Of a DNA stretch of 50,264 bases, positions 7,077-50,264 are shown piece after piece (position 1 is the first letter of the stretch; every line of letters begins with the position of its first letter). The DNA comes from a virus (lineage: Duplodnaviria; Heunggongvirae; Uroviricota; Caudoviricetes): IMG/VR virus record IMGVR_UViG_2925891887_000005; one strand, written 5' to 3'. The notes below the pieces were generated by a model that was not told the origin of the DNA, did not search any database, and saw nothing but the letters and a program-made list of their open reading frames with translations. The translations under genes were made by a program, and so were the position numbers.

Positions 7077-7117
7077 ACGTTTCTCCATTATCCCGTCTGC
7101 ACACGGGAGCAACATTA

Positions 7118-8008
7118 TTAACGAATAGTGTCGTTACTTTGAAGTACAGCAAATGCCATTAATACTTCTAAAGTATATCTTCTATAAAATTTAACAAAAC
7201 CAACATAGAAAACATAGACGAAGAAAAAGCTAAGCATTATTGAAAGTAAACTATAAAGATAATCACTATGAGTACATAATCGATAAATAAAGGTTGGAAC
7301 TGATACCCAAAATGAAATTATAAAGATTAAACATATGTTTCTGCAAAAACCATATAATGCAACATAGTTTTGAATTTTTGTTTGATGTTGTTTTGAAAAC
7401 TCATAAACATAATGATATGCCAATCTGAAGAGATCATCATCAAGTCCGTTTTTATCTTGTAATAATTGGCGATTTGTTATGAACTTTTTCTCATAACCTT
7501 CTTTGATCATTAACCATGTTGTATTAGCTAAATGAAATGGTAGAGATTGAGAATAACATAGTTTTTGTGTTATAAAATCCCATAGTATTATTGGGCATAA
7601 TACGCATTTGATTATGCGATTCTTTATTTTTGTTTTTTTATCAGCGCTTCTCTCATCGCATGATGGGCTACAAATGCTTTCTGAGGTATCTATCAATTTT
7701 TTAAATAGATATTTGGAAGGATATCCTAATTCTTTATTCATGTGTTTTTCGATAAAAAATGCTGACGTGATAGAAATAAAATGTCCAGCTATATAAGATA
7801 TAATAACTATTGAAGCGTAGTTCAAAATGCCAAAGATTTGACTTTGACCTCTGAGCAATTCACTTAAGTCAATAACAATATCTAGATCGAATGTCAAACC
7901 ACAGAAATACATTAATAGGATAAAAAAACCACCTGGTATTAAATATCCAAGAAAGTCATAGAATGAGAATGGATTTTGATTCATTGTTGCTCTCCAATAA
8001 TTGTTCAA
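7118..8008 (-). CDS. Polytopic membrane protein, unknown function (moron in the early-left operon)
   Basis: 296 aa with at least four hydrophobic helices at the N- and C-termini; extremely AT-rich, contrasting with flanking phage genes. Confidence 0.5.
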   Translation of the reverse strand: MNNYWRATMNQNPFSFYDFLGYLIPGGFFILLMYFCGLTFDLDIVIDLSELLRGQSQIFGILNYASIVIISYIAGHFISITSAFFIEKHMNKELGYPSKYLFKKLIDTSESICSPSCDERSADKKTKIKNRIIKCVLCPIILWDFITQKLCYSQSLPFHLANTTWLMIKEGYEKKFITNRQLLQDKNGLDDDLFRLAYHYVYEFSKQHQTKIQNYVALYGFCRNICLIFIISFWVSVPTFIYRLCTHSDYLYSLLSIMLSFFFVYVFYVGFVKFYRRYTLEVLMAFAVLQSNDTIR

Positions 8009-8092
8009 TTTGTAATATAACCTATATCTATATGTTAATAAATTACTTATATGTTCTTTTATGGCAGAGTTTGAATTCGTACGTGCTGATTT

Positions 8093-8617
8093 TTACGACT
8101 CAGTTAACTCTTTAAAGCGTTCCATAAACATCCCATAGGTATGGCCTGGCGACAGTGGAATAACTTTGAACATCTCTGTTGCCGGGATACCTTCCAGTAC
8201 GGGCCAGAAAGAGCCATCATCAAGCCCGAGATCGCGGCGTTCGGTTGCCAGCATGATGAGATCGGCATATTTCACGGGCGTACTCATAACCGGGGGTAAC
8301 CCGTATTTCTCACGGATTACGGCGTCTATTTTTTCTTCCATCCGTTTATAGTCAGGAAGAAGGCGTTTCAGTGGAGCCGGGATGTCCTGGCAATACGCTT
8401 CTGTTGCATCATGCATTAACGCTTCAAAAGCAAATTCCTGCGGTACCAGCTGGCTGCAAAGCACCGCATGTTGGGCGACGCTGTAGAAGTGTGAAAGATG
8501 GCCGGCAAAGCGACAGATATTTGAAAGGGAAACCGCGATATCGTTAATATCGATGTTGTCTTTATTTATCCTGTCATAATAAAAATGTTTCCCGGAAAAA
8601 GTTTTAATAAATGACAT
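8093..8617 (-). CDS. yfdR: HD-domain phosphohydrolase (YfdR-like)
   Basis: H...H (HLSHFYSVAQHAV) and HD (ALMHDATEAY) metal-binding motifs. ATG at 8617 is preceded by GGAG; the track ORF begins at GTG 8629. Confidence 0.75.
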   Translation of the reverse strand: MSFIKTFSGKHFYYDRINKDNIDINDIAVSLSNICRFAGHLSHFYSVAQHAVLCSQLVPQEFAFEALMHDATEAYCQDIPAPLKRLLPDYKRMEEKIDAVIREKYGLPPVMSTPVKYADLIMLATERRDLGLDDGSFWPVLEGIPATEMFKVIPLSPGHTYGMFMERFKELTES

Positions 8618-8745
8618 TTTATTCTCCACGTTATATGCGCTGCATCGCGCTGAATTTTGGTTAAAGAAAACCCTCGCCTTCAGGCGATTATTGAGTCAAT
8701 TACGTTTCCATAAATGCCCCCGCAGGGGCATTTGCAGTAATGAAA

Positions 8746-9570
8746 TCAGGCGGTGAAAGTCCCAATAAAGGTTTCTACTTTGCTGTCCTTGAATTTCTCA
8801 ACAAGCAGATCACGAAATTCGTTAGCCATTTCTTCCTGCACCGCCTCCAGCTGAATAATGCGCAGAACCAGTACAGGACGATCGCCAGTGATAATACTGA
8901 GGCGTAATTTAAACGGACGTTCTTTCAGACCTTCAAACGGAACGCATTTAAATTCAAATGCCACTGGCATAATGTCTTTGGTCTTCGCTTCGACAGACTC
9001 CATCAGGGAGCGTTTGCCGCTGAAGTCATTATCTTCAAAATCAGCGGTCTGGTTTGCTTCAATCGTGATTTTACGGACAGCCGCAGCCGCTTTTGTTGCC
9101 TGAATAGCGTCACCATTAGCATCAAAGCCCACAAGATAGTCGGCCCAGTCTTCAATCCATTCTGCTAGTGACTTCTGGGAGTTACGCTCGCCGTTAACAG
9201 ACAACAGAGCAGAGAACGGTGCTGTCTTTTTCAGTTTGAGTGTGGCGGTGTTATCTGCGTGACCTGGTTCATCAATAGTACCCAGGTTAAGCACACTGAC
9301 GGCACGCATATTATCAGCATCGATAAAGCAGCGGGTGCCTTCATCTGCAAGATCTTTAGAATAACGGGTAAAGTCATCGATGCTGGCAGTGGAAAGCGCA
9401 CCACGGAAACGGAAGCGATTTAAATTAAATTTTTCCAGATCATGAATGCGGAAATTCTCAGGCAATGCCACAGCATCGGCACCAATCTTACTGATAATTT
9501 CATTAACACCCTGAGCAGAAATAAGGGCATGGATTTGATTAATTGCGGTTGCGTCTAAGTTCTGAGACAT
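8746..9570 (-). CDS. yfdQ: YfdQ-family (DUF2303) prophage protein
   Basis: 274-aa ORF; length and sequence recalled as matching the CPS-53 YfdQ family. GAGGA ribosome-binding site upstream. Confidence 0.75.
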
Positions 9571-31659: not shown

Positions 31660-32049
31660 ATGATGTTTCTGAAACAGGGCTCGTTTAATTATGAAAAGCA
31701 GTCCGTGGTGCTCAGTGAGCTGTCCGGGCTGCAGAGAATTGAATATCTGGCGTTTGTTCAGCAGCGAACGGCAAAGTTTGATGCCGAAGAGGGAGAACTG
31801 CCGGAGGCTGAACGACAGATTGCTTTTCTGCGGATGGGGATGGATATCAATGCCTGGCTGGTTTCCCGCTCACTGTGGAATGCGGAACAGTCTCAGGATG
31901 TTGAGACGCTTTGCGCATCCGTTATTACAACATGGTCGTATGATGCCCTGGGAGCGGGGGCGGAGATGGTTCTGTCGCTGAGCGGTATGGGAGCCATTGA
32001 GAATGCCGGGGATTTGGAGCATGAGGTGCTGACGCCGGAAAAGTCCTGA
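31660..32049 (+). CDS. G: Tail assembly chaperone G
   Basis: Lambda gpG-like (MFLK...SELSGLQRIEYLAF). Confidence 0.85.
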   Translation: MMFLKQGSFNYEKQSVVLSELSGLQRIEYLAFVQQRTAKFDAEEGELPEAERQIAFLRMGMDINAWLVSRSLWNAEQSQDVETLCASVITTWSYDALGAGAEMVLSLSGMGAIENAGDLEHEVLTPEKS

Positions 32050-32387
32050 CGCGGGAAATGCAGTTTGTCATGCGGCTTGCCCGGGAGTTCCGGCGGGCAG
32101 ACTGGCGGCGGATGCTGTCGGAAATGTCGGCCACTGAGCTTGGTGAATGGGGCGATTATTTCCGGATGCAGAGCTTCAGTGATGTGTGGATGGATGCGCA
32201 GTTTGCCTCGCTGAAGGCATTGATCGTGAGAATGGTGTCCGGTAGCAGTGATGCTGCGGTGGCTGATTTCAGCCTTTTACCGGAAGAGAACGGGATACCG
32301 GAGCGAACGGACGAAGAACTGATGCATCTTGGGGAAGGTATTTCCGGAGGTGTGCGTTATGGACCAGATAGCCAACCTGGTCATTGA
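32025..32387 (+). CDS. T: Tail assembly chaperone T segment, expressed as a G-T fusion by -1 programmed frameshift
   Basis: The -1 frame is open from 32025 and encodes lambda gpT-like sequence (EFRRADWRRML...GISGGVRYGPD). Slippery-like CCGGAAAAG lies just before the G stop. Confidence 0.7.
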   Translation, partial: GADAGKVLTREMQFVMRLAREFRRADWRRMLSEMSATELGEWGDYFRMQSFSDVWMDAQFASLKALIVRMVSGSSDAAVADFSLLPEENGIPERTDEELMHLGEGISGGVRYGPDSQPGH

Positions 32388-35300
32388 TTTGGGGATTGAT
32401 GCGGCAGAGTTTAAAAATGAAATTCCCCGTATCAAAAACCTTCTGAATGGTGCAGCCAGCGATGCAGAACGGTCTTCTGCCCGTATGCAGCGTTTTATGG
32501 AGCGTCAGACTCAGGCCGCCCGGCAGACAATGCAGGCGGCTTCTTCGGCTGCAACAGCCGCATCCGTCCATGCGCAGACGGTGGAGAAGAGCGCACAGGC
32601 TCATGAACGCATGGCCCGCGAGGTGGAGCAAACCCGCCAGCGTATGGAGGCACTGAGCCAGAAAATGCGCGAGGAACAGGCGCAGGCCATGGCTCTGGCG
32701 GAGGCTCAGGATAAAGCGGCTGCCGCGTTTTATCGTCAGATTGACAGTGTGAAACAGGCCAGTGCGGGACTGCAGGAATTACAGCGTATTCAGCAGCAGA
32801 TCCGACAGGCCAGAAACAGTGGCGGGATTGGTCAGCAGGATTATCTGGCGCTGATTTCTGAGGTTACGGCGAAAACCGGTGTTCTTACGCAGGCTGAGGC
32901 AGAGGCTACCCGACAGAAAGTGGCGTTTATCCGTCAGCTTAAAGAGCAGGCAACCCGCCAGAATCTTTCTTCTTCTGAGTTGCTTCGTGCTAAGGCTGCC
33001 CAGCTGGGGGTAAGCAGTGCTGCAGAAGTGTATATCCGCAAAATGGAGCAGGCAGGAAAAGCCACGCATTCGCTGGGTCTGAAAAGTGCAGCGGCCCGCC
33101 AGGAGATAGGCGTTCTGATAGGTGAACTGGCTCGCGGCAATTTAGGTGCGCTGAGGGGATCCGGGATAACGCTGGCTAACCGTGCCGGATGGATAGACAC
33201 ACTGATGTCACCGAAAGGCATGATGCTGAGCGGGGTTATTGGCGGTATTGCCGCGGCCGTCTATGGTCTGGGTAAAGCCTGGTATGATGGTCAGAAGGAG
33301 GGGGAAGAATTTAACCGCCAGTTGTCGCTGACGGGGCATTATGCCGGAGTCACTGCCGGGCAGCTGTGGACGCTCAGTCGTGCTATTTCCGGGAATGGTA
33401 TTACGCAACATGCTGCAGCCGGTGCGCTGGCTCAGGTGGTGGGGAGTGGTGCATTTCGTGGAAACGATATCGGTATGGTGGCGAGAGCTGCCGCACAGAT
33501 GGAGCGATCGGTTGGCCAGTCGGTCAGCGATACCATAAATCAGTTTAAGCGGCTGAAGGATGATCCTGTAAATGCCGCGAAGGCTCTGGACAATGAGCTG
33601 CATTTTCTTACTGCCACTCAGCTTGAGCAGATACGCGTCCTTGGGGAACAGGGGCGGTCCAGTGATGCGGCACGGATAGCCATGTCTGCACTGGCAGAGG
33701 AAACCGGTCGGCGTACTGCGGATATTGATAATAACCTCAATGCGCTGGGCAGTACGCTGAAGTATCTGTCTGATTTATGGAGTCGTTTCTGGGATGCGGC
33801 CATGAATATTGGTCGTGAAGACTCGCTGGATGAACAGATTTCCGCTTTACAGGAGAAAGTGTCGCGGGCGAAAAGACTCCCCTGGACGGCATCATCTTCT
33901 CAGGTTGAGTACGATCAGCAGCGTCTTAACGAGCTTCAGGAGAAAAAACGCCAGAAGGATTTGCAGGATGCAAAAGAGCAGGCAGAGCGGAATTATCAGG
34001 AGCAACAGAAACGCCGTAATGCTGAAAATGCTGCACTGAACCGGATGAATGAAACGGAAGCAGCACGACATCAGCGTGAAATTGCGCGTATTAATTCCAT
34101 GCAGTACGCCGATCAGGCTGTCAGGGATGCGGCGATACAACGTGAAAATGAACGTTACGAGAAAGCCCTGGCATCCGGTAAGAAAAAAACACGCGACCCC
34201 CGTAATGATGAGGCCACCCGGTTATTGCTGCAGTACAGTCAGCAACAGGCACAGGTGGAAGGACAGATTGCTGCTGCCAGACAGTCAGCAGGCATTGCCA
34301 CGGAAAGGATGACAGAAGCGCATAAACAGCTTCTGGCTCTGCAGCAGCGCATCAGCGACCTGGACGGGAAAAAACTGACGGCAGATGAAAAGAGTGTGCT
34401 GGCCCGTAAAGATGAACTGATTCAGGCACTGACGCTGCTGGATGTAAAACAGCAGGAGCTTCAGAAACAGACGGCACTCAACGAGCTGAAGAAAAAAACA
34501 ATTCAGCTGACCAGTCAACTGGCTGAAGAAGAGCGCGCTCAGCGTCAGCAACATGACCTGGATATCGCCACGGTGGGTATGGGTGATCAGCAGCGGCAGC
34601 GATATCAGGTACAACTGAGTCTTCGCCAGAAATACCAGCAACAGCTGGAGCAGTTGAGGCGGGATAGTGAGCAGAAAGGAACATATAACACGGATGACTA
34701 CAGAAAGGCCGAGCAGGCGCTGACGGAGAGCCTGAACCGACAACTGAATGAGAATCGCCGTTACTGGCAACAGCTTGAAGTTGTGCAGGGTAACTGGAAA
34801 AACGGAGTCCTGCGTGCATTTCAGGATTTTACCGTGGATGCAGATAATACGGCAGGAACAGCAGAACAGGTGTTCTCGTCAGCCTTCAGCAACATGGGAA
34901 ATGGCCTGGCAACTTTTGTCACTACCGGCAAACTCAATTTCAAATCCTTCACCTCTTCTGTGCTGTCAGATATGGCGAAAATCCTGGCGCAGGCAACCAT
35001 GATGAAATCGATAAAAGGGATTGGCAGTGTACTGGGATTTGATCTCAGCAGCCTTTCCCTGAATGCCAATGGGGGGATTTATCAGTCTGCTGATTTGAGT
35101 CGTTACAGTGGCACGGTGGTTAACCGTCCGACGTTTTTTGCTTTTGCAAAAGGCGCGGGTGTGATGGGGGAAGCGGGACCTGAAGCCATTCTGCCACTGC
35201 GTCGTGGTGCTGACGGTAAGCTGGGGGTTGTGGCGGATATTGGTGGTTCAGGTATGGCGATGTTTGCCCCGCAGTACAACATCGAGATCAATAACGATGG

Positions 35301-35424
35301 CACGAACGGGCAGATAGGTCCGGCTGCCCTGAAGGTGGTTTATGACCTCGGGAAAAAAGCGGCAGCGGACTTTATGCAACAGCAGGCCCGTGATGGTGGT
35401 CGGTTAAGTGGAGCATATCGGTAA
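32359..35424 (+). CDS. H: Tail tape measure protein H
   Basis: About 1020 aa, coiled-coil rich; C-terminus INNDGTNGQIGPAALKVVYDLGKKAAADF matches lambda gpH. Confidence 0.9.
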   Translation: MDQIANLVIDLGIDAAEFKNEIPRIKNLLNGAASDAERSSARMQRFMERQTQAARQTMQAASSAATAASVHAQTVEKSAQAHERMAREVEQTRQRMEALSQKMREEQAQAMALAEAQDKAAAAFYRQIDSVKQASAGLQELQRIQQQIRQARNSGGIGQQDYLALISEVTAKTGVLTQAEAEATRQKVAFIRQLKEQATRQNLSSSELLRAKAAQLGVSSAAEVYIRKMEQAGKATHSLGLKSAAARQEIGVLIGELARGNLGALRGSGITLANRAGWIDTLMSPKGMMLSGVIGGIAAAVYGLGKAWYDGQKEGEEFNRQLSLTGHYAGVTAGQLWTLSRAISGNGITQHAAAGALAQVVGSGAFRGNDIGMVARAAAQMERSVGQSVSDTINQFKRLKDDPVNAAKALDNELHFLTATQLEQIRVLGEQGRSSDAARIAMSALAEETGRRTADIDNNLNALGSTLKYLSDLWSRFWDAAMNIGREDSLDEQISALQEKVSRAKRLPWTASSSQVEYDQQRLNELQEKKRQKDLQDAKEQAERNYQEQQKRRNAENAALNRMNETEAARHQREIARINSMQYADQAVRDAAIQRENERYEKALASGKKKTRDPRNDEATRLLLQYSQQQAQVEGQIAAARQSAGIATERMTEAHKQLLALQQRISDLDGKKLTADEKSVLARKDELIQALTLLDVKQQELQKQTALNELKKKTIQLTSQLAEEERAQRQQHDLDIATVGMGDQQRQRYQVQLSLRQKYQQQLEQLRRDSEQKGTYNTDDYRKAEQALTESLNRQLNENRRYWQQLEVVQGNWKNGVLRAFQDFTVDADNTAGTAEQVFSSAFSNMGNGLATFVTTGKLNFKSFTSSVLSDMAKILAQATMMKSIKGIGSVLGFDLSSLSLNANGGIYQSADLSRYSGTVVNRPTFFAFAKGAGVMGEAGPEAILPLRRGADGKLGVVADIGGSGMAMFAPQYNIEINNDGTNGQIGPAALKVVYDLGKKAAADFMQQQARDGGRLSGAYR

Positions 35425-35753
35425 TGGAGACGTTTCACTGGAAAGTGCGCCCGGATATGAATGTGGTATCAGAGCCGAAAGTGGTGACAGTGAAGCTGGG
35501 CGATGGTTATGAACAGCGTCGTGCGGCGGGACTGAATAACCAGTTGTCGATTTACAGCGTGACGATACGTGTTCGTAAATGTGAACACCCATCTTTAAAA
35601 GCCTTTCTGGAACGGCACGGTGGCGTCCGCGCATTTCAGTGGACGCCACCTTATGACTGGAAGCCGATCAGGGTGGTTTGTCGTAAATGGTCGGCAAGCG
35701 TGGGGGCGCTGTGGATAACCATAACGGCAGATTTTGAACAGGTCGTGGCATAG
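35424..35753 (+). CDS. M: Minor tail protein M
   Basis: Lambda gpM-like; TAATG overlap with H. Confidence 0.9.
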   Translation: METFHWKVRPDMNVVSEPKVVTVKLGDGYEQRRAAGLNNQLSIYSVTIRVRKCEHPSLKAFLERHGGVRAFQWTPPYDWKPIRVVCRKWSASVGALWITITADFEQVVA

Positions 35754-35762
35754 GAGGCTCTG

Positions 35763-36461
35763 ATGCAGGATATTCCACAGGAAACACATCATGAGACGAC
35801 ACGCCTCACTCAGTCAGCCCAGGTGGTGCTCTGGGAAATCGATCTGACAGAGGTCGGTGGTGAACGTTATTTTTTCTGTAATGAGCAGAACGAAAAAGGT
35901 GAGCCGGTTACCTGGCAGGGGCGGCAGTATCAGGCATACCCCATTCAGGGGACGGGATTTGAACTGAATGGCAAGGGCAGTGCTGCCCGTCCGACACTGA
36001 CGGTTTCTAACCTGCACGGCATGGTCACCGGGATGGCGGAAGACCTGCAGAGTCTGGTCGGCGGAACGGTGGTCCGGCGTAAGGTTTACGCCCGTTTTCT
36101 GGATGCGGTGAACTTCGTCAACGGAAACAGTGACGCCGATCCGGAGCAGGAGGTGATCAGCCGCTGGCGCATCGAGCAGTGCAGCGAACTGAGCGCGGTG
36201 AGTGCCTCTTTTGTACTGTCCACGCCGACGGAAACGGATGGCGCTGTTTTTCCGGGACGTATCATGCTGGCCAACACCTGCACCTGGACCTATCGCGGTG
36301 ATGAGTGCGGTTATCACGGTCCGGCAGTCGCGGATGAATATGACCAGCCGACGTCCGATATCACGAAGGATAAATGCAGCAAATGCCTGAGCGGCTGTAA
36401 GTTTCGCAATAACGTCGGCAACTTTGGCGGCTTCCTTTCCATTAACAAACTTTCGCAGTAA
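35763..36461 (+). CDS. L: Minor tail protein L
   Basis: Lambda gpL-like with a C-terminal Cys cluster. Confidence 0.9.
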   Translation: MQDIPQETHHETTRLTQSAQVVLWEIDLTEVGGERYFFCNEQNEKGEPVTWQGRQYQAYPIQGTGFELNGKGSAARPTLTVSNLHGMVTGMAEDLQSLVGGTVVRRKVYARFLDAVNFVNGNSDADPEQEVISRWRIEQCSELSAVSASFVLSTPTETDGAVFPGRIMLANTCTWTYRGDECGYHGPAVADEYDQPTSDITKDKCSKCLSGCKFRNNVGNFGGFLSINKLSQ

Positions 36462-36465
36462 TCCC

Positions 36466-37209
36466 ATGACAGAGACAGAATCAGCGATTCTGGCGCACGC
36501 CCGGCGATGTGCGCCAGCGGAGTCGTGCGGCTTCGTGGTGAGAACGCCGGAGGGGGAAAGATATTTTCCCTGCGTGAATATCTCCGGTGAGCCGGAGGAT
36601 TATTTCCGGATGTCGCCGGAGGACTGGCTGAGTGCAGAAATGCAGGGAGAGATTGTGGCGCTGGTCCACAGCCACCCCGGTGGTCTGCCCTGGCTGAGTG
36701 AGGCCGACCGGCGGCTGCAGGTGCAGAGTGATTTGCCGTGGTGGCTGGTCTGCCGGGGGGCGATTCATAAATTCCGCTGTGTGCCGCATCTCACCGGGCG
36801 GCGCTTTGAGCACGGGGTGACGGACTGTTACACGCTGTTCCGGGACGCTTACCATCTGGCGGGAATTGAGATGCCGGATTTGCATCGCGGGGATGACTGG
36901 TGGCGTCACGGCCAGAATCTCTATCTTGACAATATGGAGGCAACGGGTTTTTACCGTGTCCCACTGACAGAGGCGCAGCCTGGCGACGTGCTGCTGTGCT
37001 GTTTTGGTTCATCGGTGCCGAATCATGCCGCCATTTACTGTGGCGACGGCGAGCTGCTGCACCATATTCCTGAACAACTGAGTAAACGAGAGAGGTACAC
37101 CGACAAATGGCAGCGACGCACACACTCCCTCTGGCGTCACCGGGCATGGCACGCATCTGCCTTTACGGGGATTTGCAACGATTTGGTCGCCGTATCGACC
37201 TTCGTGTGA
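36466..37209 (+). CDS. K: Tail assembly protein K (JAB/MPN plus NlpC/P60 domains)
   Basis: Lambda gpK-like (HSHPGG metal site; later Cys/His pair). Confidence 0.9.
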   Translation: MTETESAILAHARRCAPAESCGFVVRTPEGERYFPCVNISGEPEDYFRMSPEDWLSAEMQGEIVALVHSHPGGLPWLSEADRRLQVQSDLPWWLVCRGAIHKFRCVPHLTGRRFEHGVTDCYTLFRDAYHLAGIEMPDLHRGDDWWRHGQNLYLDNMEATGFYRVPLTEAQPGDVLLCCFGSSVPNHAAIYCGDGELLHHIPEQLSKRERYTDKWQRRTHSLWRHRAWHASAFTGICNDLVAVSTFV

Positions 37210-37754
37210 AAACGGGGGCTGAAGCCATCCGGGCACTGGCCACACAGCTCCCGGCGTTTCGTCAGAAACTGAGCGACGGCTGGTATCAGGTACGGATTGC
37301 CGGGCGTGATGCAGGCGAAAATGAATTATCTGCCCGTCTTAATGAGCCGCTGGCAAATGGTGCCGTGATCCACATCGTGCCGCGTCTGGCGGGAGCTAAA
37401 AGTGGCGGTGTGTTTCAGGTGGTGCTTGGGGCGGCGCTGATTGCGGTGGCATGGTGGAACCCTGTGGGCTGGCTGGGGGCCGCGGCTGTATCGGGCATGT
37501 ATGCGGCAGGGGCCAGTATGATCCTGGGCGGAGTGGCGCAGATGCTGGCACCGAAAGCCAGGACGCCCACGGCAGCCAGTACAGATAACGGCAAACAGAA
37601 CACCTATTTCTCCTCACTGGATAACATGGTTGCCCAGGGCAATGTTCTGCCTGTTCTGTACGGTGAAATGCGCGTGGGGTCTCGCGTGGTTTCTCAGGAG
37701 ATCAGCACGGCAGACGAAGGGGACGGTGGTCAGGTTGTGGTGATTGGTCGCTGA
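37107..37754 (+). CDS. I: Tail assembly protein I
   Basis: N- and C-termini nearly identical to lambda gpI as recalled; overlaps the 3' end of K. Confidence 0.85.
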   Translation: MAATHTLPLASPGMARICLYGDLQRFGRRIDLRVKTGAEAIRALATQLPAFRQKLSDGWYQVRIAGRDAGENELSARLNEPLANGAVIHIVPRLAGAKSGGVFQVVLGAALIAVAWWNPVGWLGAAAVSGMYAAGASMILGGVAQMLAPKARTPTAASTDNGKQNTYFSSLDNMVAQGNVLPVLYGEMRVGSRVVSQEISTADEGDGGQVVVIGR

Positions 37755-37814
37755 TGCAAAATGTTTTATGTGAAACCGCCTGCGGGCGGTTTTGTCATTT
37801 ATGGAGCGTGAGGA

Positions 37815-40800
37815 ATGGGTAAAGGCAGCAGTAAGGGGCATACCCCGCGCGAAGCGAAGGACAACCTGAAGTCCACGCAGCTGCTGAGTGTGATCGATGC
37901 CATCAGCGAAGGGCCGGTTGAAGGTCCGGTGGATGGATTAAAAAGCGTGCTGCTGAACAGTACGCCGGTGCTGGACACTGAGGGGAATACCAACATCTCC
38001 GGTGTCACGGTGGTGTTCCGGGCAGGTGAGCAGGAGCAGACACCGCCGGAGGGGTTTGAATCCTCCGGCTCCGAGACGGTGCTGGGTACGGAAGTGAAAT
38101 ATGACACGCCGATCACCCGCACCATTACGTCTGCAAACATCGACCGTCTGCGCTTTACCTTCGGCGTGCAGGCACTGGTGGAAACCACCTCAAAGGGGGA
38201 CCGGAATCCGTCGGAAGTCCGCCTGCTGGTTCAGATCCAGCGTAATGGTGGCTGGGTGACGGAAAAAGACATCACCATTAAGGGCAAAACCACCTCGCAG
38301 TATCTGGCCTCGGTGGTGGTGGGTAACCTGCCGCCGCGCCCGTTCAATATACGGATGCGCAGGATGACGCGGGACAGCACCACAGACCAGCTGCAGAACA
38401 AAACGCTCTGGTCGTCATACACCGAAATCATCGATGTGAAACAGTGCTACCCGAACACGGCACTGGTCGGCGTGCAGGTGGATTCGGAGCAGTTCGGCAG
38501 CCAGCAGGTGAGCCGTAATTATCATCTGCGCGGGCGCATTCTGCAGGTGCCGTCGAACTATAACCCGCAGACGCGGCAATACAGCGGTATCTGGGACGGA
38601 ACGTTTAAGCCAGCATACAGCAACAACATGGCCTGGTGTCTGTGGGATATGCTGACCCATCCGCGCTACGGCATGGGGAAACGTCTTGGTGCGGCGGATG
38701 TGGACAAATGGGCGCTGTATGTCATCGGCCAGCATTGCGATCAGTCGGTGCCGGACGGTTTTGGCGGCACGGAGCCGCGCATCACCTGTAATGCCTGGCT
38801 GACCACACAGCGCAAGGCGTGGGATGTGCTCAGTGATTTCTGCTCTGCGATGCGCTGTATGCCGGTATGGAACGGGCAGACGCTGACGTTCGTGCAGGAC
38901 CGACCGTCGGATAAGGTGTGGACCTATAACCGCAGTAATGTGGTGATGCCGGATGATGGTGCGCCGTTCCGCTACAGCTTCAGCGCCCTGAAGGACCGCC
39001 ATAATGCCGTTGAGGTGAACTGGATTGACCCGAATAACGGCTGGGAGACGGCGACAGAGCTTGTGGAGGACACGCAGGCCATTGCCCGTTACGGTCGTAA
39101 CGTCACGAAGATGGATGCTTTTGGCTGTACCAGCCGGGGGCAGGCACACCGCGCCGGGCTGTGGCTGATTAAAACAGAACTGCTGGAAACGCAGACCGTG
39201 GACTTCAGCGTGGGTGCCGAAGGGCTTCGCCATGTACCGGGCGATGTCATTGAAATCTGCGATGATGACTATGCCGGTATCCGCACCGGCGGGCGCGTGC
39301 TGGCGGTAAACAGCCAGACCCGGACGCTGACGCTCGACCGTGAAATCACGCTGCCATCTTCCGGCACCACGCTGATAAGCCTGGTTGACGGGCAGGGGAG
39401 TCCGGTCAGCGTGGAGGTTCAGTCCGTCACCGACGGCGTGAAGGTGAAAGTGAGCCGTGTTCCTGACGGCGTTGCTGAATACAGCGTATGGGGGCTGAAG
39501 CTGCCGACGTTGCGCCAGCGCCTGTTCCGCTGCGTGAGTATCCGTGAGAACGACGACGGCACGTATGCCATCACCGCCGTGCAGCATGTACCGGAAAAAG
39601 AGGCCATCGTGGATAACGGGGCGCACTTTGACGGCGACCAGAGCTGCACGGTAAATGGTGTCACGCCGCCAGCGGTGCAGCACCTGACCGCAGAAGTCAC
39701 CGCAGACAGCGGGGAATACCAGGTGCTGGCCCGCTGGGACACGCCGAAGGTGGTGAAGGGCGTGAGCTTCCTGCTTCGCCTGACCGTGGCAGCGGATGAC
39801 GGCCGTGAGCGGCTGGTCAGCACGGCCCGGACGACGGAAACCACATACCGCTTCACACAACTGGCGCTGGGGAACTACAGGCTGACAGTCCGGGCAGTAA
39901 ATGCGTGGGGGCAGCAGGGCGATCCGGCGTCGGTATCGTTCCGGATTGCCGCACCGGCAGCGCCGTCGCGGATTGAGCTGACGCCGGGCTATTTTCAGAT
40001 AACCGCCACGCCGCATCTTGCGGTTTATGACCCGACGGTACAGTTTGAGTTCTGGTTCTCGGAAAAACGGATTGCGGATATCAGGCAGGTTGAAACCAGC
40101 GCGCGTTATCTTGGTACGGCACTGTACTGGATAGCCGCCAGTATCAATATCAAACCGGGCCATGATTATTATTTTTACGTTCGCAGTGTGAACACCGTTG
40201 GCAAATCGGCATTCGTGGAGGCTGTCGGTCAGCCGAGTGATGATGCATCAGGCTATCTGGATTTTTTCAAAGGCGAGATAGGGAAAACCCATCTGGCTCA
40301 GGAGCTGTGGACGCAGATTGATAACGGTCAGCTTGCGCCTGACCTGACTGAAATCAGGACGTCCATAACGGATGTCAGCAATGAAATAACACAGACCGTC
40401 AATAAGAAACTGGAAGACCAGAGTGCAGCGATCCAGCAGATACAGAAGGTTCAGGTTGATACAAATAATAACCTGAACAGCATGTGGGCAGTGAAGCTGC
40501 AGCAGATGCAGGACGGACGCCTTTATATTGCGGGTATCGGTGCCGGTATTGAGAACACCCCTGACGGCATGCAGAGTCAGGTGCTGCTGGCAGCAGACAG
40601 GATTGCGATGATTAATCCTGCGAATGGCAACACAAAGCCGATGTTTGTTGGTCAGGGCGATCAGATATTCATGAATGAAGTGTTCCTGAAACGCCTGACG
40701 GCCCCCACCATTACCAGCGGCGGTAATCCTCCGGCATTTTCCCTGACATCAGACGGGAGACTGACGGCGAAAAATGCGGATATCAGTGGCAGTGTGAATG

Positions 40801-41312
40801 CGAACTCAGGAACGCTCAACAATGTCACGATTAACCAGAACTGTACGATTAAGGGCATGCTGGAGGCGACCCAGGTCAGAGGAGATTTCGTTAAAGCTGT
40901 ATCAAAAGCCTTCCCGAAAAAAGTCGGTACGTGGGGTAACACGGAAACACCAAACGGTACGGTTACAGTCACCATCAGCGATGATCATAACTTTGACCGC
41001 CAGATTATTATTCCGCCCATTATTTTTAACGGTATAGCGTATGACGATCCGGGGAGCGGAAATAACCCAGGAGGCACGCGATACACGGGTTATGGTTTTG
41101 AAGTTCGCAAAAACGGCGTATTAATCGCATCCAGAGAAACTAAAGGGGCCATTCCCGGTAGTTACAGTGCGGTTATTGATATGCCGAGTGGCAGGGGAAG
41201 CGTCACTCTGGAGTTTAAGATTTTCCAGAAAGGCAATCAGGGGGCAGGCAATATCACCGACTGTACGGTGATTGTGACCAAAAAAGCCGCTTCCGGCATC
41301 AGTATTCGTTGA
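37815..41312 (+). CDS. J: Central tail fibre / host specificity protein J
   Basis: About 1000 aa near-identical to lambda gpJ; the C-terminal ~150 aa (receptor-binding region) diverge. Confidence 0.9.
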
Positions 41313-41333
41313 AATATTTATAACCCCAATAAA

Positions 41334-41360
41334 GGGCGTCAGGAATGACGCCTTTTTTAT
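41334..41360 (+). terminator. Rho-independent terminator after J
   Basis: GGCGTCAGGAATGACGCC followed by TTTTTTTATT. Confidence 0.6.
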
Positions 41361-41382
41361 TGCAGAAAAGCGAGAGGTAATT

Positions 41383-41982
41383 ATGCGTAAAGTTTGTGCA
41401 GCCATTTTGTCCGCAGCCATTTGTCTGGCCGTATCCGGTGCGCCTGCATGGGCGTCTGAACATCAGTCCACGCTGAGCGCGGGGTATCTTCATGCCTCGA
41501 TGAACGTCCCCGGCAGTGATGATCTGAACGGGATTAACGTGAAATACCGTTATGAGTTTACGGACACACTGGGGCTGGTGACGTCATTCAGCTATGCAGG
41601 AGACAAGAATCGCCAGCTGACCCGTTACAGCGATACCCGCTGGCATGAAGATTCCGTTCGTAACCGCTGGTTCAGCGTAATGGCGGGGCCGTCTGTGCGC
41701 GTGAATGAATGGTTCAGCGCGTATGCGATGGCGGGTGTGGCTTACAGCCGTGTGTCGACTTTCTCCGGGGATTATCTGCAGGTGACCGACAATACGGGGA
41801 AAACGCACGATGTGCTGACCGGAAGTGATGACGGTCGCCACAGCAACACGTCTCTGGCGTGGGGGGCTGGCGTGCAGTTTAACCCGACCGAATCCGTGGC
41901 CGTTGATGTCGCTTATGAAGGCTCCGGCAGCGGTGACTGGCGCACTGACGGGTTCATCGTGGGTGTTGGTTATAAATTCTGA
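41383..41982 (+). CDS. lom: Lom outer-membrane protein (Ail/Lom family)
   Basis: Signal peptide plus C-terminus ...YEGSGSGDWRTDGFIVGVGYKF, identical to the lambda Lom end. Confidence 0.85.
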   Translation: MRKVCAAILSAAICLAVSGAPAWASEHQSTLSAGYLHASMNVPGSDDLNGINVKYRYEFTDTLGLVTSFSYAGDKNRQLTRYSDTRWHEDSVRNRWFSVMAGPSVRVNEWFSAYAMAGVAYSRVSTFSGDYLQVTDNTGKTHDVLTGSDDGRHSNTSLAWGAGVQFNPTESVAVDVAYEGSGSGDWRTDGFIVGVGYKF

Positions 41983-42007
41983 TTAGCCAGGTAACACAGT
42001 GTTATGA

Positions 42008-42036
42008 CAGCCCGCCGGTTCAGGCGGGCTTTTTTG
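42008..42036 (+). terminator. Rho-independent terminator after lom
   Basis: CAGCCCGCCggttcaGGCGGGCT followed by TTTTTTG. Confidence 0.6.
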
Positions 42037-42046
42037 TGGGGTGAAT

Positions 42047-45000
42047 ATGGCAGTAAAAATTTCAGGTGTACTGAAAGACGGCACAGGAAAACCGGTACAG
42101 AACTGCACAATCCAGCTGAAAGCAAAACGTAACAGTACCACGGTGGTGGTGAACACGCTGGCATCTGAAAATCCGGATGAAGCCGGGCGTTACAGTATGG
42201 ACGTTGAGTACGGTCAGTACAGCGTTATTCTGTTGGTGGAAGGATTCCCGCCGTCACATGCCGGGACCATCACAGTGTATGAAGATTCCCGACCCGGTAC
42301 GCTGAATGATTTTCTCGGTGCCATGACGGAGGATGATGCCCGTCCGGAGGCACTGCGCCGTTTTGAGCTGATGGTGGAAGAGGTGGCGCGTAACGCGTCC
42401 GTGGTGGCACAGAACACGGCAGCCGCGAAGAAGTCAGCCAGTGATGCCAGCACATCAGCCCGTGAGGCGGCAACCCATGCGACTGATGCTGCAGGCTCAG
42501 CACGCGCAGCCAGCACGTCAGCCGGACAGGCCGCGTCGTCGGCTCAGTCAGCGACTTCCAGCGCAGGAACGGCATCAACAAAGGCCACTGAAGCATCAAA
42601 AAGTGCTGCCGCTGCAGAGTCCTCAAAAAGCGCGGCAGCTACCAGTGCCAGTGCCGCGAAAACGTCAGAAACGAATGCTGCAGCGTCACAACAATCAGCA
42701 GCCACTTCTGCATCCACCGCGACCACGAAAGCGTCAGAAGCTGCCACTTCAGCCCGGGATGCGGCGGCTTCAAAAGAGGCGGCAAAATCATCAGAAACGA
42801 ACGCATCCTCGAGCGCCAGTAGCGCAGCTTCCTCGGCAACAGCGGCAGGAAATTCCGCGAAGGCGGCAAAAACGTCAGAGACGAACGCCAGGTCTTCTGA
42901 AACGGCAGCGGGACAGAGCGCCTCGGCTGCGGCAGGCTCAAAAACAGCGGCTGCGTCGTCTGCCAGTGCAGCGTCAACAAGTGCCGGGCAGGCCTCAGCC
43001 AGTGCCACCGCCGCCGGAAAATCGGCAGAAAGCGCCGCATCGTCTGCTTCAACAGCCACAACGAAGGCTGGCGAAGCCACTGAACAGGCCAGCGCAGCAG
43101 CGAGGTCTGCTTCCGCAGCGAAGACATCCGAAACGAACGCGAAAGCGTCGGAAACCAGCGCAGAATCCTCAAAAACGGCTGCCGCATCGTCAGCCAGTTC
43201 GGCGTCGTCATCGGCATCATCTGCGTCTGCTTCAAAAGATGAGGCGACCAGACAGGCGTCAGCAGCGAAGGGTAGCGCCACGACGGCATCCACGAAGGCG
43301 ACAGAGGCTGCTGGTAGTGCGACGGCTGCAGCTCAGAGCAAAAGTACGGCGGAATCTGCAGCAACGCGCGCTGAGACAGCGGCAAAACGGGCAGAGGATA
43401 TTGCATCCGCCGTGGCGCTTGAGGATGCGAGCACGACGAAAAAGGGGATAGTACAGCTCAGCAGTGCGACCAACAGCACTTCCGAGTCACTGGCGGCAAC
43501 GCCAAAAGCCGTTAAGGCCGCGTATGACCTGGCTAACGGGAAATACACCGCACAGGATGCAACGACAGCACAGAAAGGGATAATCCAGCTAAGCAGCGCG
43601 ACCAACAGCACGTCTGAAACGCTGGCGGCAACGCCAAAGGCAGTAAAAGCAGCCAATGACAATGCTGAGAAACGTCTGCAGAAAGATCAGAACGGTGCGG
43701 ATATCCCTGGCAAAGACACCTTTACGAAAAATATTGGTGCCTGCCGTGCCTTCGGTGGGTCAGTAAGCACAACAACAGGAAACTGGACGACTGCACAGTT
43801 TATCGAGTGGCTGGATTCTCAGGGAGCATTTAACCATCCCTACTGGATGTGCAAGGGTTCCTGGTCTTATGGCAATAATAAAATCATTACTGATACTGGC
43901 TGCGGTAATATTCATCTCGCCGGAGCTGTCATTGAAATAATGGGGATAAAGTCAGCGATGACGATCCGCATTACCACACCGACCACCTCCACTGGTGGTG
44001 GAACAACTAACGCCCAGTTTACCTATATTAATCACGGAACAGATTATTCACCTGGCTGGCGAAGGGACTATAACTCCAGAAATAAGCCAACGGCATCAGA
44101 GATCGGGGCGTTACCGTCAGGTGGAACAGCAGTATCATCAGTTAATCTGTCTTCAAAAGGTCGGGTAACCGCGCTGACAGACAATACGCAGGGGGCAACA
44201 GGTCTTGAGTTATACGAGGTGTATAACAACGGATATCCAACAGCGTATGGAAATATCATTCACCTGAAAGGGATGACAGCCGTTGGCGAAGGTGAGTTAC
44301 TCATCGGCTGGAGTGGTACAAGCGGTGCTCATGCTCCGGCATTTATTCGTTCACGACGGGATACGACCGACGCAAACTGGTCGCCGTGGGCGCAGCTTTA
44401 CACCTCGGCTCATCCTCCTGCAGAGTTTTATCCAGTCGGTGCACCAATCCCGTGGCCATCAGATACCGTTCCGTCTGGTTATGCCCTGATGCAGGGGCAG
44501 ACTTTTGACAAATCTGCTTACCCGAAACTTGCAGCCGCTTATCCGTCAGGCGTGATCCCTGATATGCGTGGCTGGACGATTAAGGGCAAGCCCGCCAGTG
44601 GTCGTGCCGTATTGTCTCAGGAACAGGATGGCATTAAATCGCACACCCACAGCGCCAGCGCATCCAGTACGGATTTGGGGACGAAAACCACATCGTCGTT
44701 TGATTACGGCACTAAATCCACGAATAACACTGGTGCGCATACCCATAGTTTAAGTGGCAGCACGAATGCAGCTGGTAATCACAGCCATAGAGATGGCCGT
44801 CGATTTAACCCCAGTGTTTTTAAAGATACTTATCAATATGGTTATACAAGCTCAGGTCAAAATACCTGGGGTGTACAAGGCTCAGTAGGTATGTCTACGG
44901 GGTGGTTAGCGAATACCAGTACAGATGGTAATCATAGCCATTCACTGTCCGGCACAGCAGCATCTGCAGGTGCACACGCGCATACTGTCGGTATTGGTGC

Positions 45001-45118
45001 TCATACGCACTCCGTTGCGATTGGTTCACATGGACACACCATCACCGTTAACGCTGCTGGTAACGCGGAAAACACCGTCAAAAACATCGCATTTAACTAT
45101 ATTGTGAGGCTTGCATAA
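42047..45118 (+). CDS. stf: Side tail fibre protein Stf
   Basis: N-terminus [30 protein letters not shown] near-identical to lambda Stf; long Ala/Ser/Thr-rich repeat region; C-terminal His-rich fibre-tip region. Confidence 0.85.
42420..43450 (+). repeat. Imperfect tandem coding repeats (Ala/Ser/Thr-rich, recurring KTSETNA units) within stf
   Basis: Repeated GCxAAAACGTCAGAAACGAAyGC-like units; these generate long spurious ORFs in other frames and on the opposite strand. Confidence 0.6.
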
Positions 45119-45702
45119 TGGCATTCAGAATGAGTGAACAACCACGGACCATAACAATTTATAATCTGCTGGCCGGAACTAATGAATTTATTGGTGAAGG
45201 TGATGCATATATTCCGCCTCATACAGGTCTGCCAGCAAACAGTACCGATATTGCACCACCAGATATTCCTGCTGGCTTTGTGGCTGTTTTCAACAGTGAT
45301 GAGGCATCGTGGCATCTCGTTGAAGACCATCGGGGTAAAACGGTTTATGACGTGGCTTCCGGCGACGCGTTATTTATTTCTGAACTCGGTCCGTTACCGG
45401 AAAATGTTACCTGGTTGTCGCCGGGAGGGGAGTATCAGAAGTGGAACGGCACAGCCTGGGGGAAGGATACGGAAGCAGAAAAACTGTTCCGGATCCGGGA
45501 GGCAGAAGAAACAAAAAACAGCCTGATGCAGGTAGCCAGTGAGCATATTGCGCCACTTCAGGATGCTGTAGATCTGGAAATCGCAACGGAGGAAGAAAAC
45601 TCGTTGCTGGAAGCCTGGAAGAAGTATCGGGTGTTGCTGAACCGTGTTGATACATCAACTGCACCGGATATTGAGTGGCCAGAAGAACCAGACACCGTGT
45701 AA
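45118..45702 (+). CDS. tfa: Tail fibre assembly protein Tfa
   Basis: Lambda Tfa-like; TAATG overlap with stf. Confidence 0.85.
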
Positions 45703-45749
45703 GCAAAAAAGAAAAACCGCAGACACGACGTATGCATGACGTGCTGCGG
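45703..45749 (-). terminator. Bidirectional terminator between tfa and the GIY-YIG gene
   Basis: CCGCAG...CTGCGG hairpin flanked by an A-run on the plus strand and TTTTTCTTTTTT on the minus strand. Confidence 0.55.
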
Positions 45750-45771
45750 TTTATGCTTATCACTTAAAGAC

Positions 45772-46590
<819 letters not shown>

Positions 46591-46951
46591 TCATTGCAAG
46601 GGCTCACAACCAGTAGTGTTGAGAAAACCATCGGAGAAATGAGGCTAAGCCTTTGAATTTACATAGTACAAAAAAGATACTTTTCCTCATAATGTGAGCT
46701 AATTTTATGTTTCGTTTGATGATTGGACCGGTCTCGAAAACCGTAGACACATAGTATGCGTTAATTTATGAACAAACTACTTGTCTGCTGTTTTTCTGTC
46801 ATTAGTCGTATATAGAATGATTCTCTATGCCTAACAAAGCATCACCAGTGCTAGATTACGTTGTAGTCACTGTTTAAATATCCAGATAAAACATTTCCTT
46901 CTGGGTTGAATGAGTGATAAAGTTTCACCCATTAGACCCCTTGGAGGAATT

Positions 46952-48385
46952 ATGTCTGAATTTGAAGTGTTGGCACAGCATCTGCTGAAGGAAGCCGAGG
47001 CGGAAGAAAAGCTGCGACAGGAAAATGATAAAAAGCTTATCGAGAAAGTGCTGGAAATCTATGATCAGAAGTATGTGGCTGAATTACTGAGAAAAGTCGG
47101 AAAAAATGAGTGGAGCCGTGAAACCATTAACCGCTGGATTAATGGCAAGTGTTTACCAAAATCGTTGACTTCAGTAGAAGAGTCTCTTCTGCGTAAGATG
47201 CTACCAGAACCACCTGCAAACCATCCGGAATATGCTTTCCGCTTCATTGACTTATTTGCTGGAATTGGAGGGATACGGAAAGGTTTTGAGGCCATTGGAG
47301 GCCAGTGTGTTTTTACCAGTGAATGGAATAAAGATGCTGTGCGTACATACAAGGCCAACTGGTTTAACGATGAACAGGTGCATAAATTCAATCTCGATAT
47401 TCGGGAAGTCACGCTGAGTGATAAAACCGATGTATTGGAAACGGATGCTTATGCATATATTGATGAGCATGTGCCGGATCATGATGTGCTTCTTGCGGGG
47501 TTCCCGTGCCAGCCATTTAGCCTTGCTGGTGTTAGTAAGAAAAACTCACTTGGTCGTGCGCATGGTTTTGAATGTGAAGCACAAGGAACACTTTTTTTTG
47601 ACGTGGCACGTATTATACGAGCAAAAAAACCGGCAATTTTTGTGCTGGAAAATGTCAAAAATCTGAAGAGCCATGATAAGGGTAAAACTTTCAAAGTCAT
47701 TATGGAGACCCTTGACGAGCTGGGCTACGAAGTTGCCGATGCTGCAGAAATGGGAAAAAACGATCCAAAGATTATCGATGGGAAGCATTTTTTGCCTCAG
47801 CATCGTGAACGCATTGTTCTGGTCGGATTTAGACGAGATCTGAATATTCACAAGGGGTTTACCTTGCGTGATATCAGTCGTTTTTATCCGGAACACCGCC
47901 CATCATTTGGTGAATTGCTGGAGCCTGTAGTCGACAGTAAATATATACTTACGCCAAAACTATGGGAGTACCTTTATAACTACGCCAAAAAGCATGCAGC
48001 CAAGGGGAATGGTTTTGGCTTTGGGTTGGTCAATCCTGAGAATAAGGAAAGCATTGCACGCACACTTTCTGCCAGATATCACAAAGACGGATCAGAAATT
48101 CTTATTGATCGTGGTTGGGATATGGCAACGGGAGAGGCTGACTTTATGAATGAGAGTAATCAGGCTCGTCGACCACGCAGGCTGACTCCCCGAGAGTGCG
48201 CACGCCTTATGGGATTTGAAAAACCTGGAGGGAAACCATTCCGTATTCCGGTTTCAGATACTCAGTCATATCGGCAGTTCGGTAACTCAGTTGTGGTGCC
48301 AGTATTTGAAGCTGTTGCCAGACTTCTGGAACCCTATATCCTCAAAGCTGTTTCTGCTGATGCTGGTAAGACTGGGCAGCCTTGA
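46952..48385 (+). CDS. dcm: C5-cytosine DNA methyltransferase, Dcm / M.EcoRII-like (CCWGG)
   Basis: [17 protein letters not shown] (motif I), GFPCQPFS (motif IV), ENV (motif VI), QFGNSV; near-identical to Dcm/M.EcoRII as recalled. Start at MSEFE with a GGAGG ribosome-binding site; the track ORF starts at 46910. Confidence 0.9.
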
Positions 48386-48391
48386 GAACAT

Positions 48392-48414
48392 CTCCCGGCC
48401 TTTTAAGCCGGGAG
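48392..48414. terminator. Hairpin between the convergent methyltransferase and endonuclease genes
   Basis: CTCCCGGCcttttaaGCCGGGAG inverted repeat. Confidence 0.4.
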
Positions 48415-48419
48415 TCAGC

Positions 48420-49634
48420 CTATGATAGTTCAGCGTAAAGCTCTATCAGCTCAGTAATGAATGCTCCGAGCGTTATTAATTCTTCTCTAACTGCTTCTGG
48501 GTATTTTTTATGTAAAGTTGATGGTACAACGAGTCTGACACCCGCATCTTTCATTTCTCGGTATTGTGCTGAAGAAACACCTTCTTGCAGTGTAAATAAA
48601 TGTACCTGATGGATTTTATCTGCTTCATTCAGTATCTGACGCCAGCGATCTTTGCAGGTGGTCTTTACTGCCAGCATACGTAAGTTTTCTACAGGAAATT
48701 CAACGTTATGATATGCCTCTGCTGAAGGAAACAGGAAATCTGGTTTTTTATTACCTTCAGTAACTGCCTGAGTGGAGAAATGCCGTAGTCCGTGCTCGAT
48801 AAAAAGCTTCTCTAGGTGAAGTTCAAGTGATTTGCCTGCCCTTGATTTACGTCGATTACTGACAGAGTTGGCTAATGCAATAAACTCATCTACAGAATCG
48901 AATCCTTTCTTAATAATATCAAGAACATGTAATTCCTCGACGAGTAGAAAAATATCATACTCGACACGCCGACGGTCAATCAGTTGCTCATCTGGATCCT
49001 TGGAGTTTTTAGCATAATGGCCAGCAGCATATTGAATAATTTCGTTTCCAGAAGGAAAACGCTTCTTCCAGTCTTCAGGAATAACATATTTATGATTTAC
49101 TGGAGTTTGCTGAAGAGACAATCCGCCCAAAATTTGTCCGGCAGGGCCGGAAATTAGGGTTCCAGGTATGATTTCGCCAATAGCAGACTCGATGATATCC
49201 TCTTCATCGGGATTGACGCAGACCCATATATCTACCTCGGAACAGTCAGTGTTCTGTTCGTTTAACCTGAAAGCAAGAATTGTGAGGGCTCCTGTATTTT
49301 CAGGGTTCTGTAATGGACTTCCTCTCCCCCAGCGCGTAATTCTTTTTTCGTTTCGGGTCTTACCAAAATAACGGTTGTTGTAATAAATTGCGCGTGCTTG
49401 GGTATCAGGGCAATCATGGGATGATACATGCGCAGTAAGGAAGACTGAAGGGTTCAGTTCGCGAGTATGATTGATAGATGGAAAAAGCTTTTCAACGATA
49501 TTTGAGGGGATATAAAGTCCGACCTGATGGCCACCTGTTGCGCCTGTGTCGTTTGCAGAAAGGCGTTTGATGTAGATAAAGTAATTCCCGCTTGCGATAT
49601 CAAGCAGCCAGTTATGAAAAACCGACATATACAT
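48420..49634 (-). CDS. ecoRIIR: Type IIE restriction endonuclease, EcoRII-like
   Basis: 404 aa; N-terminus SVFHNWLL...YIKRLSANDTGATGGHQVGLYIP matches the EcoRII effector domain as recalled; convergent with the methyltransferase. Confidence 0.85.
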   Translation of the reverse strand: MYMSVFHNWLLDIASGNYFIYIKRLSANDTGATGGHQVGLYIPSNIVEKLFPSINHTRELNPSVFLTAHVSSHDCPDTQARAIYYNNRYFGKTRNEKRITRWGRGSPLQNPENTGALTILAFRLNEQNTDCSEVDIWVCVNPDEEDIIESAIGEIIPGTLISGPAGQILGGLSLQQTPVNHKYVIPEDWKKRFPSGNEIIQYAAGHYAKNSKDPDEQLIDRRRVEYDIFLLVEELHVLDIIKKGFDSVDEFIALANSVSNRRKSRAGKSLELHLEKLFIEHGLRHFSTQAVTEGNKKPDFLFPSAEAYHNVEFPVENLRMLAVKTTCKDRWRQILNEADKIHQVHLFTLQEGVSSAQYREMKDAGVRLVVPSTLHKKYPEAVREELITLGAFITELIELYAELS

Positions 49635-49711
49635 CCCTTTGTTAACATACAGTCAGGGTTAACATTTTTCCATAGTTATAGATAAGCGGCTAGGAACTTA
49701 AGGGAAAAACA

Positions 49712-49735
49712 AAAAGCCCGCATAAGCGGGCTTTT
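49712..49735 (-). terminator. Rho-independent terminator downstream of ssrA (within attR-proximal prophage DNA)
   Basis: Minus-strand AAAGCCCGCTTATGCGGGCTTT followed by TTGTTTTT. Confidence 0.55.
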
Positions 49736-49862
49736 GTGTCACTCGAGAGCCGCGGCTCCTTTGCGTATCCTTTTTTGTCTCCTCACCGTCTGGTCGGTGT
49801 CCTGCTGAGACTGCTAACTTCCTGTTTTTGTTGGTGTTGTCCTTACACCGTCCAATCATGAT

Positions 49863-49892
49863 TGGTGGAGCTGGCGGGAGTTGAACCCGCGT
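49863..49892. repeat. attR core: 3' end of ssrA, identical to the repeat at 3671-3700
   Basis: Exact 30-bp identity with 3671-3700. Confidence 0.85.
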
Positions 49893-50225
49893 CCGAAATT
49901 CCTACATCCTCGGTACTACATGCTTAGTCAGTCTTTACATTCGCTTGCCAACTGCGGACGGACACGCCACTAACAAACTAGCCTGATTAAGTTTTAACGC
50001 TTCAACCCCAGGCAGGGCTTCCACGCGATCTCTTTTGGGTTTGACCTCTCTTGATCCCCGTCCTAAGAGCGGAGGCTAGGGAGAGAGGGCTCTAAGCAGG
50101 TTATTAAGCTGCTAAAGCGTAGTTTTCGTCGTTTGCGACTATTTTTTGCGGCTTTTTACGAGGCCAACCGCCCCTCGGCATGCACCTTGGGTTTCGCAAA
50201 TCCCGTCGAATCCAGAATCAGCCCC
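49863..50225 (-). ncRNA. ssrA: tmRNA (SsrA), complete 363-nt gene
   Basis: Reverse complement reads GGGGCTGATTCTGGATTCGACGGG ... tag ORF GCAAACGACGAAAACTACGCTTTAGCAGCTTAA (ANDENYALAA) ... GGTTCAACTCCCGCCAGCTCCACCA; a TATACT -10 element lies just upstream at about 50240. Confidence 0.95.
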
Positions 50226-50264
50226 AATGTGTAAAGGTAAGTATACCAGATTTATGAGCGCCAT

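Follow-up and report, generated by a model that had tools for sequence, protein, structure and literature searches.

Outer-membrane protein Ib of Escherichia coli is OmpC in the established nomenclature, and OmpC is polymorphic. The tail-tip protein gpJ of phage lambda binds LamB, and the receptor of phage 434 was reported to be protein Ib by Hantke (1978, pmid 360042), as that report is cited in PMC7553319 and PMC7414163. The assignment of OmpC to 434 has been restated (PMC12502783), and lambda binds OmpC when it is equipped with the tail fibre gene of 434 (PMC11101478). The receptor-binding domains (RBDs) of 434, lambda and phi330 are 35-40% identical and descend from a common ancestor, although their receptors differ (PMC12502783). 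The correspondence between RBD cluster and receptor is not one-to-one, as phi330, with its 35-40% identical RBD, and A8, with a 44% identical one, use OmpC too. The A8 gpJ chimera provides a J tip shown to bind OmpC (PDB 9wca, and 9wcb with OmpC G17 of E. coli EDL933; PMC11338833), and J chimeras of this kind discriminate between OmpC alleles, A8 and 1A2 differing in the alleles they accept (PMC11338833).

The window analysed here is the whole 50,264-nucleotide stretch of a Caudoviricetes virus record (IMGVR_UViG_2925891887_000005). Its positions 31800-50259 are 99.98% identical to the chromosome of E. coli THO-003 (3 mismatches in 18,460 nt), where the prophage end adjoins the ssrA tmRNA gene and the copy of J is annotated as gpJ, 'phage attachment tail tip protein J' (WP_029700815.1). 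The right end of the window also contains the tmRNA gene, which places the prophage beside ssrA, a known hotspot for integration. The J gene is divided into four blocks by its likeness to lambda and 434, and these features are located as follows:

37815..41312, plus strand: complete J gene (tip attachment protein / central tail fibre), 1165 amino acids plus stop, from the ORF list and translation
37815..40229, plus strand: lambda-like body with the hub domains and two FNIII/Ig domains, residues 1-805, 97.8% identical to lambda
40230..40664, plus strand: variant shaft block, residues 806-950, unlike lambda and 434 in protein and nucleotide alignments
40665..40817, plus strand: conserved central-straight-fibre segment, residues 951-1001, common to lambda, 434 and the window
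40818..41312, plus strand: 434-type receptor-binding block, residues 1002-1165 plus stop, comprising the fibre neck and the Ig-like RBD
49863-50225, minus strand: tmRNA gene ssrA with the tag peptide ANDENYALAA, at the right end of the window

The ORF of J is uninterrupted and intact over its full 1165 residues, and its translation carries, all above cutoff, the Pfam series FNIII-A_GpJ (residues 86-207), Phage-tail_3 (330-498), Ig_J (612-714), Ig_J_second (716-818), Phage_Tail_Tip (872-1000) and Ig_GpJ_C (1029-1164). This is the domain order characteristic of the lambda gpJ family, running from the hub to the C-terminal receptor-binding domain. The gene order is that of a gpJ locus as well, with tape measure, M, L, K and a homologue of I upstream of J and lom, stf and tfa downstream, as judged from the window ORFs, Pfam matches and, for the 99.98% identical region of THO-003, the RefSeq annotation, and the cluster M-L-K-I-J-lom-stf-tfa is intact. 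Lambda gpJ (PDB 8iyk, 8xck, 8xcj) has the same domain architecture and gene context. Three mechanically called ORFs that overlap 40850-41312 (40661-40975 on the minus strand, 40798-41037 on the plus strand and 41121-41420 on the minus strand) were rejected as lying inside or across this strongly supported gene.

In a pairwise alignment with lambda J (NC_001416 15505-18903, NP_040600.1), J of the window was 82% identical over the whole length, and the identity was distributed in a strongly block-wise manner. Residues 1-805 differ from lambda at 18 amino acids and at 102 of 2415 nucleotides, and among the 96 codons that differ, 78 do so synonymously. Residues 806-950 are ~44% identical (66 identities in 150 alignment columns) and carry a 28-residue insertion, residues 951-1000 are 94% identical (47/50), and residues ~1002-1165 show ~36-40% identity with length differences in three segments. 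The sequence-only reading had described the first ~1000 residues as tracking lambda, which holds for residues 1-805 at 97.8% but not for residues 806-950, a separate diverged block. It had also described the C-terminus as much more diverged than the body, and this is borne out by the last ~165 residues, which stand at ~36-40% against 97.8%. The 12-residue peptide at which it had placed the switch is indeed present at residues 1025-1036 (nt 40887-40922), but the divergence from lambda starts slightly upstream, at residue 1002 (nt ~40818). The alignment with lambda J, which had been proposed as a check, recovered the diverged C-terminus and revealed in addition a second diverged block and a C-terminus that is homologous to that of lambda.

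Phage 434 J (OL657226.1, UMO75286.1) matches the C-terminal block far more closely, with 97% identity over residues ~996-1165 and differences at 13 of 510 nucleotides and 5 of 170 amino acids (N1047D, R1127G, I1136V, Q1138H and G1143R). The window is essentially identical to 434 from nt ~40800 to the stop codon, and lambda and 434 J diverge from each other at exactly that same point. The N-terminal body of 434 J is ~98% identical to that of the window, whereas 434 J is 1137 residues long against 1165, is without the 28-residue insertion and differs from the window in the shaft and upper-fibre block (residues 806-950 of the window's J). The lambda h434 hybrids in GenBank carry the J type of the window. 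Among 243 phage records that matched the tip at the protein level, 74 did so at 90% identity or more and 169 at less than 60%, with none in between, and the RBD types are therefore discrete.

The last ~150 residues had been taken to be unrelated to the LamB-binding domain of lambda, and this claim is contradicted by sequence, family and fold. The C-terminus can be aligned with that of lambda J over its entire length. The last 150 residues find lambda J at 36% identity (E 2e-15; tblastn against the whole phage collection), and the last 215 residues retrieve the lambda gpJ chains of the PDB at E 4e-57, with A8 gpJ as the best-scoring match at E 3.5e-65 (phmmer). The Pfam family PF12421 (Ig_GpJ_C), described as 'Tip attachment protein J, C-terminal receptor binding domain', covers residues 1029-1164 with E 4e-25 and 88.9 bits against a cutoff of 26.2. 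Structure prediction of the C-terminal domain, which had likewise been proposed as a check, returned a gpJ-type RBD. The AF2 model of residues 1001-1165 is all-beta with pLDDT 77, for a monomer of a trimeric domain and from a shallow alignment, built on a homologue search with the C-terminal 165 residues that yielded mostly truncated or chimeric fragments. Its top four Foldseek matches in the PDB are 8xck, 9wca, 8xcj and 9wcb (E ~1e-13, TM 0.72-0.73), with 38% identity to the lambda central fibre (8xck, 8xcj; closed and open states) and 44% to A8 gpJ, and the next matches are nine orders of magnitude weaker (E > 1e-4). These structural matches and the near-identity to 434 place the C-terminal domain in the Ig-like receptor-binding fold of gpJ, as a diverged member that belongs to the 434 type. 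It has the beta-sandwich of the solved gpJ RBDs (AF2, Foldseek) and belongs to PF12421, and by sequence it falls within the discrete 434 group, differing from 434 J at 5 of 170 residues. The RBD of lambda gpJ shares this Ig-like fold and Pfam family, yet is only ~36-40% identical, and at 36% over the last 150 residues the domain lies outside the close identity that would mark a lambda-type LamB-binding RBD. A8 gpJ has the fold of the window's domain (TM 0.73) and is ~44% identical over residues 1001-1165; it is of a different RBD type and also uses OmpC.

Given 97% identity between the C-terminal block and its counterpart in 434 J, OmpC, and not LamB, is most likely the receptor of the J allele in the window. 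The host-range swap to a different outer-membrane receptor, which the sequence-only reading had proposed, thus finds support in the block shared with 434, a phage reported to use OmpC, but the swap is not new and is the classical h434 host-range type. The C-terminal domain might instead have diverged and still recognise LamB, with no change of receptor, as it is homologous to the LamB-binding domain of lambda and has the same fold. Such a retained receptor is very improbable, as the identity to lambda is only ~36-40% with three segments that differ in length, and the 97% identity is to 434 J, the host range of which is classically distinct from that of lambda and has been mapped to OmpC. The five substitutions relative to 434 J may, on the other hand, direct the tip to an outer-membrane protein that is neither OmpC nor LamB, such as OmpF or a different porin, or to particular OmpC alleles only. 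Precedents for this are the point mutations in lambda J that can add the use of OmpF (PMC11101478, PMC13190303) and the A8 and 1A2 chimeras with their differing OmpC alleles (PMC11338833). We consider a changed target of this kind improbable, as just 5 of 170 residues differ from 434 and nothing points to another receptor, and as mEp332, grown on K-12, and PhiR68_2, grown on ECOR13, have 100% identical RBDs. A literature search for receptor experiments on phages that share this RBD exactly (mEp332, PhiR68_2 and ev243), and on the PhiR phages and phiSTEC1575-Stx2k, returned none. We hold with good confidence that J of the window is a mosaic of a lambda-like body, a long-shaft block and a 434-type tip, and that this tip most likely docks on OmpC and not on LamB.

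The likeness to 434 relative to lambda is not restricted to J. It starts at ~40800, covers lom and ends at ~42380, ~340 nt into stf. Two features lie directly downstream of the J stop codon:

41334..41360, plus strand: terminator-like hairpin GGCGTCA-GGAA-TGACGCC followed by a T-run, read in the sequence
41383..41982, plus strand: lom, coding for an Ail/Lom outer-membrane protein, 434-type allele (Pfam Ail_Lom, E 3e-121)

The GC-rich hairpin is placed just past the J stop, where a scan gave the same hairpin on the minus strand, and its position agrees with that of an annotated terminator downstream of J in phage 434. Lom of the window is 95% identical to Lom of 434 and 45% identical to that of lambda, and across phages the window's lom allele is the common one and that of lambda the less common. 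The receptor-binding block of J and lom were considered as a single obligate cassette, and this was rejected, as the lom allele occurs in more than 100 records with other RBD types. In the phage collection, the tip and the lom allele occur together in 67 records and a few records have the tip but lack the allele, while in the more than 100 records that combine the lom allele with other tips the similarity to the window resumes in the last ~40 nt of J. As lom and the tip are separable across phages, the exchangeable tip module spans about nt 40800-41275, with conserved sequence at either edge, namely the fibre segment of residues 951-1001 to the left and the C-terminal end of J to the right.

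The conserved segment on the left has a nucleotide identity of 53-57 in 60 to both lambda and 434, and is probably the left-hand recombination linker of the tip module. Besides, a peptide of lambda J, residues 902-933, has been reported as the trigger of the abortive-infection nuclease HepS, with F924 as the trigger residue (PMC13043305). The equivalent of this peptide lies at 40665-40760 of the window (J residues ~930-961), where several flanking residues differ and the critical phenylalanine is kept, F952 of the window's J corresponding to F924 of lambda.

The shaft block upstream of this segment sets the window apart from both reference phages. Its 28-residue insertion (84 nt, the length of four heptads) lies at about 40320-40403 and is absent from lambda and 434. 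The alpha-helical shaft of lambda gpJ comprises residues 809-861 (PMC11101478), and the insertion sits in the region that matches it, the whole block spanning the shaft and the upper central straight fibre. The shaft block of lambda, a phage that binds LamB, is diverged from that of the window, which is the longer of the two. The insertion is predicted to be helical when shaft and fibre are modelled as a monomer with AF2, at low confidence (pLDDT 46), which hints at a helical extension of the shaft. The block is present at 90% identity or more in 65 phage records, and is not tied to the 434-type tip: phage 1H12 combines it with a lambda-type tip, its RBD being 40.6% identical to that of the window, and Lambda_ev087 is likewise given with a lambda-type tip, though it is not among the RBD matches listed. 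As the long-shaft block is found with other RBD types, shaft and tip assort independently. The shaft longer by 28 residues and the 434-type tip with its five substitutions could also be functionally tuned, so that shaft length and tip together determine the host range, for instance by reaching OmpC through a longer O-antigen layer or by recognising particular OmpC alleles; we regard such tuning as unlikely.

The J gene of the window is widely shared. Over its full length it is 99.7% identical at the nucleotide level to that of vB_EcoS-569R4 and 99.6% to that of phiSTEC1575-Stx2k, and the J genes of PhiR42_1, ev243, Kati, mEp332, Ayreon, phi458 and cdtI are 95-99% identical. All these sequenced lambdoid phages, from vB_EcoS-569R4 to cdtI, have the same long shaft and 434-type RBD and show only point differences. 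Of 5426 complete E. coli genomes, 2113 (about 39%) have the 513-nt tip block, and 597 records contain it at 99% identity or more. Plaque-forming phages propagated on K-12 or ECOR13 carry J genes that are 97-99% identical to that of the window. With its ORF and the entire tail cluster unbroken, and with a near-identical J occurring in plaque-forming phages, J is likely a functional, mosaic lambdoid gene for the tail tip and central fibre, in an E. coli prophage beside ssrA. Many E. coli prophages are defective, and J could accordingly be a decaying remnant whose C-terminal divergence has no functional meaning. The near-identical phage record vB_EcoS-569R4 (ON470598.1, 6001-9496), with its J annotated as two CDS (6001-7221 and 7247-9496), speaks for this reading, the split suggesting a frameshift, a stop or a sequencing error. 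The copy in the window is intact, however, with an uninterrupted ORF in an unbroken M-L-K-I-J-lom-stf-tfa cluster, the differing codons of its lambda-like body are predominantly synonymous (the 78 of 96 given above), and its receptor-binding block is the same, or almost the same, as in plaque-forming phages. Decay is thus a highly improbable account of this locus, and the reading of J as a working mosaic gene is preferred. The finding is real but ordinary, as the J tip has long been known and the gene has already been sequenced and annotated many times.

Apart from J, the window encodes a second adsorption device of the virion, made up of stf and tfa (together matching Pfam phage_tail_N, Phage_fiber_2, Collar and Caudo_TAP), and further genes between tfa and the prophage end:

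42041-45118, plus strand: side tail fibre gene stf, one uninterrupted 1025-residue ORF
45118-45702, plus strand: tail fibre assembly gene tfa, 94% identical to lambda in nucleotides
within 45772-49634, minus strand: GIY-YIG (LEM-3-like) gene, from the THO-003 RefSeq annotation
about 46952-48385, plus strand: DNA cytosine methyltransferase gene, from the THO-003 RefSeq annotation
48420-49628, minus strand: type II restriction endonuclease gene, from the THO-003 RefSeq annotation

In the lambda reference record the stf region is annotated as two ORFs, orf-401 and orf-314, and the C-terminus of the window's Stf is 71% identical to orf-314, with indels in His-rich repeats. The Stf of Ur-lambda has been reported to bind OmpC (PMC11338833), and by analogy J and Stf of the window's phage might target the same porin. 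The three genes of 45772-49634, between tfa and the prophage end, are named as RefSeq annotates them in the near-identical region of THO-003, and together they look like a restriction-modification cargo module.

From the structures of lambda gpJ with LamB (PMC11101478) and the existence of the A8 gpJ-OmpC complex (9wcb), we infer by analogy how J of the window may trigger infection. The protein is assembled from at least three exchangeable segments, namely the body (residues 1-805), the long-shaft block (806-950) and the 434-type tip (~1002-1165). Its trimeric Ig-like tip would dock on a trimeric porin, OmpC for the 434 type, with the bottom loops inserted. Docking would open the tip and twist the beta-prism fibre, whereupon the alpha-helical shaft would flip and the FNIII domains would be released, and the opening of the tail tube would lead to DNA ejection.

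The J tip matters little beyond its correct annotation, which predicts that a common E. coli prophage adsorbs through OmpC and not through LamB. This is of use in host-range prediction and in the choice of J modules for phage engineering. The locus is also a clean example of modular exchange within one gene, in which the combinations of shaft and tip vary and the tip is flanked by conserved sequence, and both this modular exchange and the OmpC-type tip are already established for the lambdoid phages.
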